A DNA stretch of 64,000 bases, taken from NCBI GenBank assembly GCA_963845185.1, contig CAWJRG010000005.1, positions 320,001 to 384,000 on the forward strand. Direction: 5' to 3'. Below, in pieces: positions 552-5,789 of the stretch (position 1 is its first letter; each line of letters opens with the position of its first letter). The DNA comes from an uncultured bacterium. Its GTDB lineage: Bacteria > Oederibacteriota > PGYV01 > CAWJRG01. The notes under the pieces are model-generated. The model had not been told where the DNA came from and did not search any database. It worked only from the letters and a program-made list of their open reading frames with translations. Both the position numbers and the translations under genes were made by a program.

Positions 552-653
552 AGCAAGAGTTTATTTTTGCAAGCCGTCAACAGGCGCAGCAAAAATATTA
601 CTCTTGTTTACACCCGCTCCAGTCCGAGGCTATTGCCGAGGACAAGGGGTGTT
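552..653. repeat. SD-adjacent two-hairpin element, copy 1 (upstream of degP)
   Basis: AAGAGT-T-TATTTTTGC...GCC-GTCAACA-GGC...GCAAAAATA-TT-ACTCTT then ACACC-CGCTCCA-GTCC-GA-GGC...GCC-GA-GGAC-AAGG-GGTGT; five further copies in window. Confidence 0.85.
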
Positions 654-737
654 AGCATCTTTGCAGTGATTTATTTCATATTATTAGACGTCTTTGATAT
701 ATCAAATGTTTCATACTTTATTAAAAAGCCCCCAGGC

Positions 738-2156
738 TTATTTTACCTTTGGCGTTGGTACCGGCTGTTGCTTTTCCGGAAAATCAGGCAGGTTGAAATT
801 CTTAAGAGCGCCGGTATCCACGGAAAAAATCAAGCTTCTTTCCAGGACCTTTATGTAATATTCCTCTTTATTTTCGGCTTTTTTGCCAAGCAACACCGTG
901 CCTATGTAAGCGTCTTTTTCACCCCACATTTTCAAAAACGGCGCCTTGGCGTCTATACCGTACAACTTTTCTTCCTGATCCGGGCTTAATTTGCCTTCTA
1001 TCTTTGTTTTATAATTGCACCAGTACAAACCTGCCAGCACGCTTGTAATATTAACTTTTGTTTTATCCACGTTTTTGGCTTCCTTTATTTCCCACGCAAA
1101 ATTATTTTTCCCTTTTTCCACGTTAGTTGCCCGTATCTCGATATCCCTGTATTTTATCTCCACCCTCTTTACCTTATCCTGCATGAATATAACGACCTGT
1201 TTGTTGACAAGCTGCCATATATCCGGTATCCCATTATAGCCGTATATGGGTATTTCCATTACCTGGTCCATGGTGTCGCTTTTTACATAAACGGTATTAT
1301 CCTTCTTGTCCTGCAGCCCGAAATATATGGTTTTCTTGGCATTGCCTTCGTAAAAAGATATGTGTTCCGGCGGATTGTCAAGCCCGTATTTTTTTAAATT
1401 TGCAGGAGTTTCCGGCTCCATTTTTTTTGCCTTGGCTCCTTTTAGACTGTTGTATACATCCCTGATTGTTTCGATTTTACCTATGTCGTTAACCGCTCCT
1501 ATTACTTTCCACGAATCAGGCTCTTCTTTGTCATTCAGCCTGACGAGGGTATACTCCTTATTTTTAAGCTTTACTTCAATTTTTGCGGTCTTACTCGTGT
1601 CAACCCTTATGGGCGTCTTATCCCTGTAATCAAAAAGCGTCTTCTCACAGTATGTTCTTAAGTTGTGGTCCAAAAGATAAACAACCTTGGGGTTCTCCGG
1701 CTTCATGGCGTACACAAGCGTTTTGCTCGGATTGTAAGCCCCGATATTTAATTTAAAATCTTTTTTGTCCTTTGTGATTATTTCCGTGGTGGCAAAAGGC
1801 GTATTCAGGTCAAAATCAGCCAGGTCCTGCGGCGTGAAATTGTCTATTGTCCTGTCCGCTATTGTGCCCGGATATTTGGCCAGTACTCCGCTTACTCCCA
1901 CTTCGTCGGTGTATGCCTTTATCGGTTCGTCAACCATCATGTCGTTGCCGACTTTTTTAAGCACTATCCTGCTTTTTGTGTCCCTGTTTGTAACTATCAG
2001 GGATGTAATATCATCCTGTTTTAACCCGTAAAAAAGCATTTCGTCCTGCATTTTTATGTCATAGTCTTTTTTCTTTTTTACAACGTCAACAAAATAAAAA
2101 TATCCGCCGAGAATTACAAGCACGCCGAGCGCGATCAGTATTTGTTTGCCTTTCAT
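738..2156 (-). CDS. DUF4340-domain membrane-anchored protein (Gld-like ABC operon)
   Basis: N-terminal TM helix, repeated LxxYGLDxP-type motifs, position after gldG-like gene. Confidence 0.7.
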   Translation of the reverse strand: MKGKQILIALGVLVILGGYFYFVDVVKKKKDYDIKMQDEMLFYGLKQDDITSLIVTNRDTKSRIVLKKVGNDMMVDEPIKAYTDEVGVSGVLAKYPGTIADRTIDNFTPQDLADFDLNTPFATTEIITKDKKDFKLNIGAYNPSKTLVYAMKPENPKVVYLLDHNLRTYCEKTLFDYRDKTPIRVDTSKTAKIEVKLKNKEYTLVRLNDKEEPDSWKVIGAVNDIGKIETIRDVYNSLKGAKAKKMEPETPANLKKYGLDNPPEHISFYEGNAKKTIYFGLQDKKDNTVYVKSDTMDQVMEIPIYGYNGIPDIWQLVNKQVVIFMQDKVKRVEIKYRDIEIRATNVEKGKNNFAWEIKEAKNVDKTKVNITSVLAGLYWCNYKTKIEGKLSPDQEEKLYGIDAKAPFLKMWGEKDAYIGTVLLGKKAENKEEYYIKVLERSLIFSVDTGALKNFNLPDFPEKQQPVPTPKVK

Positions 2157-2167
2157 AATTTCCTCCT

Positions 2168-2333
2168 AAGAGTCCGTTGATTTTGCCGAGCGTCAACAGG
2201 CAGTCAAATAGTCCTGTGGACTATTTGACGGGTAGTTTCCATAAGTCATCTAATATAAAAACTACCCAGCAAAATCTTACGGAGTCTTGCACCTGTTCCA
2301 GTCCGAGGCCGTCAGGCCGAGGACAAGTGGTGC
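2168..2333. repeat. SD-adjacent element, copy 2 (long form with two extra hairpins)
   Basis: Same scaffold as 552-653 with inserted GTCAAATAGTCC-TGT-GGACTATTTGAC and GGGTAGTTT...AAACTACCC hairpins; abuts TCCTCCT 2161-2167. Confidence 0.85.
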
Positions 2334-2385
2334 GTTTTTATTTTTAATGTTTAATTATTCAACACTCAGCACCCAACACTCAAAT

Positions 2386-3958: not shown

Positions 3959-3959
3959 G

Positions 3960-4733
3960 TTAGCCCCTCCACTGTTTTGATTCAAGGACCCGCAATGAAA
4001 GGAACAAAAAGAGCGCGGTAAAATTCAGGTAATAAATCAGGTCCGATGTGTCTATCATGCCCTTGGAAAAGGAACCAAGGTGCTCTATTATCGAAAGGTT
4101 TGTCAATATTTTCTGCCCTATGGGCCCGAGAGAACCTGCCTGCCATGAAATAACCCAGAATAAAAGCAGCAGCCCGAAACTTGCAACCGCGGCCACTATC
4201 TGGCTTTCCGTTAAAGTTGATATAAAAATCCCAAGCATTATAAACGCGCTGCCTACCAGTATCAGCCCGAGAAACCCGCAAAGCAGAGGAAGCAGTTCAA
4301 AATCCCCGGCGAACCTTAAGATAATAAAAGAAAGTCCTCCTCCCACAATCATGATAAGCAGAATCGTAAGTGCCGATAAAAATTTCGCCATCACTATGGC
4401 AAAATCGCTGACGGGATACGTAAATAAAAGCTCGGACGTGCCTTCCCTTTTTTCCTCGGCAAAAACCCTCATGGTAATTATCGGAACCATGAGAAGCAGT
4501 ATCACGGCCATGTTCTGGAAGTACGGCCTGAATACGCCGTCAATCATGGACAGTTCCGCGCCCCTGTAATACGACTGCATGCTGCGCATGGACATCATGG
4601 AATAATAGTTTATTATGCTTGTGAAAAAATAGCCGCTTAAGACCATGTAAACCACAATTATGGTATACGCTATCGGAAGGGCAAAAAATATTTTTAACTC
4701 CTTCTTGTACAGAGCCAAAAATTTCTGGTCCAT
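3960..4733 (-). CDS. ABC-2 type permease, GldF-like
   Basis: Multiple TM helices, ITMRVFAEEKREGTSELLFTYP motif. Confidence 0.85.
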   Translation of the reverse strand: MDQKFLALYKKELKIFFALPIAYTIIVVYMVLSGYFFTSIINYYSMMSMRSMQSYYRGAELSMIDGVFRPYFQNMAVILLLMVPIITMRVFAEEKREGTSELLFTYPVSDFAIVMAKFLSALTILLIMIVGGGLSFIILRFAGDFELLPLLCGFLGLILVGSAFIMLGIFISTLTESQIVAAVASFGLLLLFWVISWQAGSLGPIGQKILTNLSIIEHLGSFSKGMIDTSDLIYYLNFTALFLFLSLRVLESKQWRG

Positions 4734-4734
4734 C

Positions 4735-5676
4735 TCACATTACCTCCTTCGTTACTAGTTTAAGGAAGACTTCTTCCAGGGTTAAATCCACTTTTTTGAG
4801 TTCCAGCAGCCCCCAGTCTTTCTTCACTATCTTGTTTACAACTTCTTTTCTTAAATCAGCGCCTTCTTCAGTATCTATATTATAAGCGTATGCGCCTTCC
4901 TCTATTTTTTCTGCCTCCGTGACTTTTGTCACTCCGCGTATTTTTTCAATTTCCTGCTCAAATTGGGCCTTTGGCGCTTCGACCTGCACGTATATCCTGC
5001 CCGATTTCTGGAAAGTCTTTGTTAAATTCTCAACCTTGTCCTGCGCCACGATTTTGCCTTCGTTTATTACCACCACCCTGTCGCATGTCATGTTTACCTC
5101 GGGCAGTATGTGAGTGGAAAGTATTATCGTACGCTCGCCCTTCATGTTTTTTATCAGGTTCCTTATTTCCTTTATCTGCTTCGGGTCAAGCCCTACGGTT
5201 GGTTCGTCAAGTATCAGCACTTCAGGGTCGTTAAGGATTGCCTGCGCCAGACCTACCCTCTGCCTGTAACCTTTTGACAGCTTTCCTATTATCATATTCC
5301 TGACTTCGGCAGCGCCTGCTTCCTCCATCGCCTTATTAATCCTGGCTTCGATTTTATCTTTGGGTACGCCTTTTATTTCAGCGATGAACTGCAGGTATTC
5401 ATGTACCTGTAACTCCTTGTAAAGCGGTACATTTTCAGGCATGTACCCGATTTTTTCTTTCGCGTGTACCGGGTCGCTGACAACGTCAATGCCTGCCACT
5501 TTCACCTTGCCTTCGGTAGGGGGGAAAAAACCGGTGATTACCCTCATGGTTGTGGTTTTGCCTGCTCCGTTCGGTCCCAAAAAACCGACTATTTCTCCTT
5601 TTTGAACCTCAAAGGAGACACCGTCGACCGCCACTTTTTGCCCGAACCTCTTCGTAACGTTTGTGAGTTCAATCAT
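4735..5676 (-). CDS. ABC transporter ATP-binding protein, GldA-like
   Basis: Walker [17 protein letters not shown] signature, Walker B LILDEPT. Confidence 0.92.
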
Positions 5677-5687
5677 ATCTGCCTCCT

Positions 5688-5789
5688 AGCAAGAGTTTAT
5701 TTTGCAAACTGTCAACAGGTGCAGCAAAATATTACTCTTGCTTGCACCCGTTCAAGTCCCAGGCTCCAAGAGCCTGGGACTAGTGGTGC
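5688..5789. repeat. SD-adjacent element, copy 3 (upstream of ABC ATPase)
   Basis: GCAAGAGT-T-TATTTTGC...GCAAAATA-TT-ACTCTTGC + GCACC-CGTTCAA-GTCC...GGAC-TAGT-GGTGC; abuts CCTCCT 5682-5687. Confidence 0.85.

Follow-up and report, generated by a model that had tools for sequence, protein, structure and literature searches.

Two-hairpin modules placed against the Shine-Dalgarno sequence of unrelated genes in an uncultured bacterium

We describe a dispersed two-hairpin element in a 64,000-nt stretch of DNA from an uncultured bacterium (hereafter the window, i.e. the whole stretch that was analysed), where six copies stand directly 5' of the Shine-Dalgarno (SD) sequence of six genes. The window spans positions 320001-384000 of contig C5 in a 3.50-Mb genome (label G000; 11 contigs, 99.4% complete). 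We favour, with a probability of about 0.6, the explanation that these copies belong to a non-coding, non-autonomous family of mobile modules, ~100 nt long and specific to the lineage, which land without a scar 5' of GGAGG, and that selection has since retained some of them.

An initial annotation made from the sequence of the window had reported six such copies. All six were present and aligned as one family, with boundaries that we slightly refined using filled and empty sites. They lie on the minus strand, so that on the plus strand each abuts CCTCC, TCTCC or CCTCCC, the complement of the SD of the downstream gene. The annotation had placed them against the SDs of six minus-strand genes, and this was borne out: the distance from the end of the element to the SD is 0-3 nt, and the neighbours were verified with Pfam. 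The genes downstream encode a trypsin-like DegP protein, a DUF4340 protein, an ABC ATPase, a cupin, a phosphofructokinase (PFK) and an M23 peptidase with LysM, i.e. six unrelated Pfam families; DnaJ is encoded upstream of the first gene run.

Genome-wide placement and insertion sites

A profile built from the six copies retrieved 194 matches in the genome with nhmmer, and a profile of the core retrieved 179. There are 132 full-length copies, 112 of them short (88-102 nt) and 20 long (130-165 nt). Their orientation is always the same, with one end (that of hairpin B, described below) directly 5' of GGAGG or GGGAG. An intact 3' end is present in 152 copies. In 104 of these a GGAG, GAGG or GGGA begins within 6 nt, mostly at +2 or +3, a rule that holds at 3.9% of 20,000 random positions. 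A start codon also lies 8-17 nt further on in 95 of the 152, and 11 are followed by another copy. The downstream open reading frame (ORF) is co-oriented with the element in 118 of the 132 full-length copies, the upstream one in 110. We measured the gap from the end of the upstream ORF on 54 copies, those having a co-oriented upstream ORF among the 58 with a co-oriented ORF start at most 40 nt away; on this crude gene map its median is 105 nt and its lower quartile 28 nt. Since the flanking ORFs are mostly co-oriented and the gaps short, many copies are intercistronic. Other copies follow recognisable host promoters, at a variable distance upstream.

The copies are insertions relative to both orthologous and paralogous empty sites. 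The orthologous sites come from two metagenome contigs, L060 and L061, which encode relatives of the DUF4340 protein (79% and 74% identity, respectively) in the same gene order. Each has a single strong match to our covariance model (CM), the copy upstream of degP. The DUF4340 site is empty in both contigs, where the GGAGG SD and the ATG are retained: the window reads ...AAAAACG, then the element, then GGAGGAAATTATG, and L061 reads ...TTTTACCGGAGGAAATCATG. At the degP site, the window and L060 share the 5' junction and the subfamily, and L061 carries a copy with a different B stem, a different A loop and a different 5' junction. The latter is a replacement or an independent insertion at the same SD. 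Upstream of the ABC ATPase gene, where the window has a copy, all that L061 shows is a degenerate B-like hairpin.

The paralogous sites are provided by R2, a second repeat family of the genome, of which one motif found 22 copies; it offers filled and empty sites within a single genome. Empty R2 copies read ...GCGCTCCG/GGGAGGGAGC, or in a longer view ...GATAGCGCTCCG/GGGAGGGAGCATAT..., where the slash marks the insertion point. Filled copies have GTACC...CTATCAA (ending in CGCTATCAA) at the slash. The flank is otherwise unchanged and no base is duplicated, i.e. there is no target site duplication between filled and empty R2 sites. At least three subtypes of the element occupy the identical position in different R2 copies. 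The element thus delimited begins with GTACCGC... and ends with ...CGCTATCAA, in the general form G/A-Y-ACC to ...AUC(W)AA. Its termini are not complementary; terminal inverted repeats are absent, all inverted repeats being those of the internal hairpins. At the R2 position the adjacent motif is GGGAGGG, with no ATG, GTG or TTG in SD range and no ORF found after it. Because the SD lies outside the unit and this GGGAGG, which is not an SD, has been hit repeatedly, the GGAGG motif is a landing site recognised as sequence rather than cargo of the element.

R2 itself, an undescribed repeat, is ~130 nt long (AATCCCGC...CCCCGCC-GGTAGA-GGCGGGG-ATTGATAGCGCTCCGGGGAGGGAGCATAT...GGTGCTCC...GCTCCAC) and has no match in Rfam; no copy was seen in the window. 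Examples lie at C9:28480-28620, C6:76300-76560 and C10:877600-877760 (loci L101-L106), and one copy is directly upstream of a tRNA gene. It contains a promoter-like TTGATA-N17-CATATT, and in several R2 copies the element is inserted into that spacer.

Copies also occur next to each other. Tandem arrays join as ...ATCAAG/TACC..., with no SD between the units. One such series, C9:916430-917187, holds seven nearly identical 100-bp units and a long variant at its end, with no gene start after it. Directly upstream of 25 of the 132 full-length copies is the 3' half of a hairpin B, from a tandem copy or from a 5'-truncated remnant broken near the B loop; in the control, such a half precedes 1% of 405 genes that have an SD and lack the element. 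These remnants fit a history of repeated insertion at one SD, in which older copies would be displaced upstream. Six copies (C5:35398, C5:32926, C1:208376, C9:656518, C9:671568 and C9:676676) are followed not by an SD but by a shared motif of the AGTTTTCAATTTTCAAT type, which may be a further repeat or a leader module.

Fold, compensatory change and retention of the copies

Read in the sense of the genes, i.e. on the minus strand, a copy consists of hairpin A, a short linker, the long hairpin B and 2-3 A/U-rich bases, followed by the SD and the start codon. The consensus of hairpin A is (G/A)(C/U)ACC-N-CU(U/C)-GUCC...variable stem-loop...GGAC-U(G/U)GA-N-CGGGU(G/A)(C/U), with a conserved asymmetric internal loop (ACC.CU.GUCC...GGACU.GA.CGGGU). 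Hairpin B has a variable outer stem, a conserved GUAA(U/G)...(A/U)AAC internal loop, an inner stem made of a U-run and an A-run, and a small apical stem. In long copies the B loop holds two optional hairpins, C and D. The genome has 28 such C+D pairs: 13 within B loops, 8 beside a copy and 7 alone. As the pair also stands apart and can abut GGAGG by itself, the family is a mosaic of hairpin modules.

The initial annotation had described a hairpin B next to a hairpin A, with stems that vary in sequence and keep their pairing. Both claims were upheld by the alignment and by comparison with shuffled sequences. The four short copies of the window fold better than their shuffles on both strands (z from -5.3 to -8.8; 0/200 shuffles as good). 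Covariation was tested on 24 copies: four of the window, plus 20 sampled at regular intervals among 81 further short full-length copies. Of the 31 predicted pairs, 21 are changed on both sides, against 2-7 with slid partners. Paired cells amount to 94.0%, compared with 29.7-42% when partners are slid by 1-3 columns, and 0/500 shuffles matched the observed values. The first base of the element pairs and covaries with its partner (GC in 15 and AU in 5 of the 24 copies); hence it belongs to the element.

We then compared the fold with known RNA families. The window has no Rfam match at gathering score, and eight copies searched at E-values up to 5 gave only a chance match to mir-355 (E 3.3). On this basis we rejected a known RNA family; the annotation had recognised no riboswitch, ribozyme or REP. 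It had also stated that a match to a known RNA family or to the end of an insertion sequence (IS), an absence of covariation, or random placement relative to SDs would count against it. We found no Rfam match, no CM match at the IS110 and group II intron loci of the genome, strong covariation and non-random placement.

Which strand is folded is less clear. Wobble pairs are scarce in the sense strand, with 46 G.U cells against 97 A.C cells over all copies; within unique helices the counts are 37 and 53 (p=0.11). With RNA parameters, 89 of 132 copies have the lower folding energy on the antisense strand; DNA parameters give 71 of 132 (p=0.10). A recurrent symmetric UC/UC mismatch in hairpin A becomes a tandem G.A when it is read antisense. 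These tests of the folded strand lean to the antisense strand but are not significant.

The comparison of orthologous copies informs on their age and constraint. The copies of the genome are old: compared pairwise they are on average 66% identical, and the closest match of a copy, neighbours set aside, has a median identity of 87%. The degP copy is identical at 99 of 103 positions between the window and L060, in the loops as well as in the stems. The neutral references are far lower: 75 of 125 four-fold sites in the adjacent DUF4340 gene, and 62 of 129 positions in the intergenic DNA just upstream. Because of this difference from the four-fold sites, at least some copies appear to have been kept by selection. 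A single orthologous copy so far above neutral conservation argues for some retained function, and that the window and L060 have the same 5' junction speaks for a single ancestral insertion, retained since. Two species of another family of the order have orthologous elements that match at 89 of 98 positions; in the B stem they differ by two transversion pairs, both fully compensated.

What the module does to the SD was assessed by folding 72 leaders, each made of 40 nt upstream, a short full-length copy with an SD-like motif and a start codon, and 50 nt downstream. The predicted probability that the SD 5-mer is unpaired is 0.47 in the native leaders and 0.32 when the element is shuffled (native higher in 56/72, p=5e-8). 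With the element removed it is 0.45, no different from the native value. Neither sequestration of the SD nor improved access to it is seen in these leaders. Since predicted accessibility is unchanged and the element folds on itself, the module would neither hide nor expose the SD.

The positions of the copies in the window are given in table 1.

Table 1. Copies of the element and a remnant in the window, with the genes that they precede (positions are those of the window).
Feature	Position	Strand	Context	CM score (bits)
Copy 1 (short, hairpins A + B)	550..652	-	directly 5' of SD GGAGG (545-549); trypsin-like DegP gene (3..539)	96.2
Copy 2 (long; A, B and extra hairpins C + D in B loop)	2167..2333	-	5' of SD (2162-2166); DUF4340 gene (738..2156)	
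Copy 3 (short)	5687..5789	-	5' of SD (5682-5686); ABC ATPase gene (4735..5676); downstream of dnaJ (5815..6972)	92.3
Copy 4 (long, hairpins C + D)	40341..40498	-	5' of GGGAGG (40335-40340); cupin gene (40057..40329)	
Copy 5 (short)	42180..42284	-	5' of GGAGA (42175-42179); PFK (pfp) gene (40503..42170)	107.9 (best)
Copy 6 (short)	61440..61534	-	5' of GGGAGA (61434-61439); LysM-M23 peptidase gene (60377..61426/61432)	90
5'-truncated remnant (3' half of hairpin B)	61537..61560	-	immediately upstream of copy 6	

Weighing of the explanations

The CM finds the family in 10 of the 30 relatives searched, all from the same order and with 1-19 copies per genome, and it did not find the family in 7 genomes of other orders of the phylum. 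The search scored at most 130 candidates in each genome, a number reached by the genome of the window. The conserved motif of hairpin A also matches several records titled candidate division FCPU426 and one further metagenome-assembled genome; other matches are single. The nucleotides of the hairpin A loop are invariant across the families of the order. In family f2, two of the three copies read are adjacent to an SD. In a sister family, two orthologous copies (L107, G023:C95, ~3179-3290; L084, G014:C89, 1732-1829) differ by a ~55-nt hairpin in the B loop, so the B loop is a site of expansion there too.

These data lead us to the following mechanism. A module that lands at an SD would end up within a 5' leader or an intercistronic spacer, mostly between co-oriented genes. 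Its insertion would be tolerated, as the module is predicted to form a fold of its own and to keep the SD as open as before. The initial annotation had proposed a mobile element that targets SD sequences and hence inserts without breaking genes; the empty sites, the exchange of subfamilies at the degP SD, the exact ends without duplication and the unchanged SD accessibility all support it. Its alternative, a global cis element of translation or mRNA processing, might apply as well: the conserved orthologous copy speaks for some function, and the downstream genes are unrelated. Mobilisation may be guided by structure or by pairing on single-stranded nucleic acid, in an HUH-like or a retroelement-like manner, by an enzyme that would no longer be recognisable in this genome. 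Insertion that is scar-free, oriented and adjacent to a motif, together with hairpins near both ends, recalls the single-strand transposition of IS200/IS605 elements or retrohoming. Purifying selection would since have held at least some copies. Their likely role would be to stabilise or insulate the mRNA as a self-contained structured leader, or to serve as a binding platform for a factor that recognises the invariant A loop.

Several observations weigh against this explanation, one being that no mobilising enzyme was found. We found no match to the Y1/HUH domain (PF01797) in this 99.4% complete genome, where 6 of 14 control genomes were positive, and no match to a TnpB-type domain. Among the 30 relatives PF01797 does not track the element: of the 22 that have it, 6 belong to the 10 element carriers and 16 to the 20 non-carriers. 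Seven genes of the IS110 family and a group II intron in six near-identical copies are present in the genome. The CM matches none of these 13 loci, except for an independent neighbouring copy, and we rejected them as parents. There is also little trace of recent movement: only two dispersed pairs of copies are at least 97% identical, and one of them (C9 532502 and C9 918635) shares R2-like flanks, as a duplicated segment would. The case for constraint is thin, as it rests on two loci, one per lineage, and the same pattern could arise by re-insertion at a hot spot, replacement having been seen in L061. As for a role at the RNA level, the SD is predicted to be no more accessible with the element than without it, and the scarcity of G.U pairs is not the usual trace of selection on a sense RNA, which leaves weak evidence for such a role.

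The landing rule is also not constant, since in family f10 the module is not at an SD. None of the 19 copies read in this family is followed by GGAGG and a start codon. By eye, what follows is an A-run and an inverted repeat in 15 cases, another copy in two and other sequence in two. At one locus where orthologues could be compared, the module sits after the T-tract of a terminator; the sites in three other genomes are empty and retain both terminator and T-tract. Hence the A-run is complementary to a terminator tail that was there before and is not a tail of the element, so a poly-A tail of the retroposon kind was rejected. These terminators were called on the strand opposite to the sense of the element, and no sigma-70-type promoter was called, which leaves a reading of the f10 copies as free-standing small RNA genes insecure, although the 5' flank of the element is conserved at 32 of 35 bases between two species. 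Seen from the antisense strand, the order is the same in both contexts: a pyrimidine run (T-tract or CCTCC), then B', then A'.

Other searches for a source of mobility were also negative. A match to the Y2 domain PF04986 was not found in the genome, but the control genomes gave none either, so that this search carries no information. We found no split copies of the element flanking a transposase gene. One candidate was an ordinary desaturase-like gene between two degenerate copies; in the other, the 5' piece adjoins a full copy and was not read as part of a split element.

The resident mobile elements are of interest in themselves. The group II intron (1.93 kb; RVT_1 at 142 bits, Rfam D1-D4 at 100 bits and D5-D6 at 49 bits) has six copies that are 99.3-99.8% identical, at C9:700695, C9:811636, C9:845477, C10:383780, C10:832145 and C11:62007 (L088-L093), none of them in the window. 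All six lie within translation-initiation regions, with a left flank GGAGG-N2-4-(T)TATGA followed by GTGCG, and the 3' end of the shared unit provides AGGAGG-N9-ATG in frame with the codons that follow, which resemble those of a signal peptide. With this intron, the genome has a second mobile element that homes to an SD and start codon. An IS110-family element of 1288 bp lies at ~15600-16887 of the window (C5:335600-336887) and has three further identical copies (L095, L097 and L098). Its copies have a motif of the CTCCC or CTCTC type in the left flank, 4-8 nt before the IS end GGGAGAGG, with no evident duplication; given this pyrimidine motif, the left flank and the IS end can pair.

The element might instead be purely selfish DNA derived from IS200/IS605, similar to palindrome-associated transposable elements (PATEs) or to repetitive extragenic palindromes (REPs), a possibility that we regard as unlikely. 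The hairpins would then serve an HUH transposase as single-stranded DNA, the plus (antisense) strand would be the active one, the target would be CTCC(Y) 5' of the left end, and the RNA would have no function. The subterminal hairpins, the lack of terminal inverted repeats and of duplications, the fixed orientation relative to an asymmetric target at one end and the precise empty sites all agree with this proposal. So do the nearly pure Watson-Crick pairing, with A.C cells exceeding G.U cells in the sense strand, the tandem G.A that hairpin A forms antisense, the better antisense folds with RNA parameters and the frequency of Y1 transposases among the relatives. The antisense strand of the other family follows a terminator T-tract, which is a typical safe haven. 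However, the genome with by far the most copies is one where no Y1 was found, the relatives show no association, and the strand tests fall short of significance both in unique helices and with DNA parameters. There is no room for a guide between the target and the foot of the hairpin, and the right end stops at the base of a hairpin, unlike the geometry of IS608. Selection for mobility alone also does not explain why a resident orthologue is 96% conserved where neutral sites are at 60%.

A role in regulation could conversely be primary. Under this explanation, which seems to us quite improbable, the element is the cis-regulatory leader of a large regulon in which hairpin A docks a protein or RNA acting in trans on initiation, and dispersal is secondary. 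The invariant nucleotides of the hairpin A loop across the order, an SD spacing that is fixed in about two thirds of the copies, the conservation of both loops and stems in the orthologous copy, and the SD predicted to be left unpaired beside a rigid helix would all be expected of such a leader. Yet the downstream genes are unrelated, and a crude test gave no bias towards exported proteins among the genes served (24/88 vs 204/510). The same position is used beside a GGGAGG that is not an SD, seven units stand in tandem away from gene starts, the module of the other family is not beside an SD, and G.U pairs are scarce. Finally, the element might be a cassette that supplies its own SD, and possibly a promoter, as do REP2 of Neisseria and the inverted-repeat (IR) elements of Borrelia, which in the part of the source covered here also have two internal stem-loops immediately upstream of genes (PMC3184786). 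The junctions contradict this, since the SD is present in empty orthologous sites, absent between tandem units, and part of an R2 flank that is the same in filled and empty copies. No promoter was found at a fixed position in the 5' flank in the genome of the window (at most 0.3 bit per position past the last base), and the host promoters lie at variable distances. We thus give this last explanation hardly any credence.

Retained mobile modules landing at the SD would be a rare case of a small mobile element that uses a translation start signal as its landing pad. REP, BOX, ERIC, Correia and REP2 repeats are known, but the movement and the role of most of them are still open. The present family offers clean handles on both: exact ends, scar-free empty sites, a 5-nt landing motif that is also the ribosome-binding site (RBS), some 100 unrelated genes with a natural "fusion" to a copy, strong compensatory evolution, and a sister lineage whose copies of the module stand after terminators. 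Should the element itself encode the landing rule, this would be a natural system to place a structured leader before any RBS. If copies have been co-opted, it would show a mobile element building a regulon at the level of translation. One may speculate further, and we consider this doubtful, that this is a novel type of small mobile element with an insertion machinery that reads GGAGG itself, through structure or pairing of single-stranded nucleic acid and without leaving a scar, that the module was domesticated as a portable structured leader, and that a dedicated factor reading the A loop would link ~100 unrelated genes in one post-transcriptional circuit. Translation-start signals would then be a general landing pad, as the group II intron at GGAGG-N-TTATGA would also suggest.

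Comparison with known systems

In the parts of the literature that we covered, we found no description of a repeat abutting the SD, nor of repeats in the genomes titled FCPU426. PATEs derived from IS200/IS605, and REPs with their REP-associated tyrosine transposases (RAYTs), lack terminal inverted repeats and target duplications, have hairpins near their ends, insert in an orientation set by a short asymmetric target and leave precise empty sites. The element shares with PATEs the absence of terminal inverted repeats and of duplication, the hairpins near both ends and the oriented insertion beside a short target. It differs in that no Y1-encoding IS with the same ends was found in the genome and in that the relatives show no association with Y1. 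In contrast to both PATE and REP/RAYT systems, its two hairpins are dissimilar, its target is an SD motif, and its stems vary widely with compensation. REPs and the bacterial interspersed mosaic elements that contain them are in any case different objects: REPs are GC-rich palindromes of ~20-40 nt, often in inverted pairs, with a cognate RAYT, whereas the element is ~100 nt long, with two unlike hairpins and a single orientation.

Modular hairpin repeats such as BOX of Streptococcus pneumoniae, ERIC and Correia are transcribed together with their neighbours and can affect mRNA processing. As in these repeats, modules (here A, B, C and D) are combined as a mosaic. BOX, ERIC and Correia are however not reported to abut the SD at a fixed spacing, and Correia and RUP have terminal inverted repeats, TA targets and target duplications. 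The lack of terminal inverted repeats and of a target duplication (often TA) likewise separates the element from miniature inverted-repeat transposable elements (MITEs) of the Correia, RUP or Nezha type. Class C group II introns land directly after the T-tract of intrinsic terminators, in one orientation. The module of the sister family resembles them in standing directly after a terminator T-tract, in one orientation and without duplication. It differs from them in its size of ~100 nt, the absence of intron domains and of an Rfam match, and the lack of CM matches at intron loci. Among hairpin repeats, the part of the source that we covered describes Correia, or NEMIS, as MITEs (PMC2229807). 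The difference from riboswitch leaders is that the genes downstream are functionally unrelated.

The nearest described things, as far as the covered part of the source goes, are the REP2 leaders of Neisseria and the IR leaders of Borrelia (PMC3184786). Like REP2 and Borrelia IR-A and IR-B, the element is dispersed and non-coding, has no terminal inverted repeats, contains two internal stem-loops and lies in the 5' untranslated region immediately upstream of unrelated genes. According to the same part of that source, REP2 and the Borrelia elements contain a promoter, an RBS and an ATG, and exist in ~14-26 copies. The element described here, unlike them, leaves the RBS outside the unit, is present in ~180 copies and has no sequence similarity to either; it is itself marked by strong covariation and by exact empty sites.

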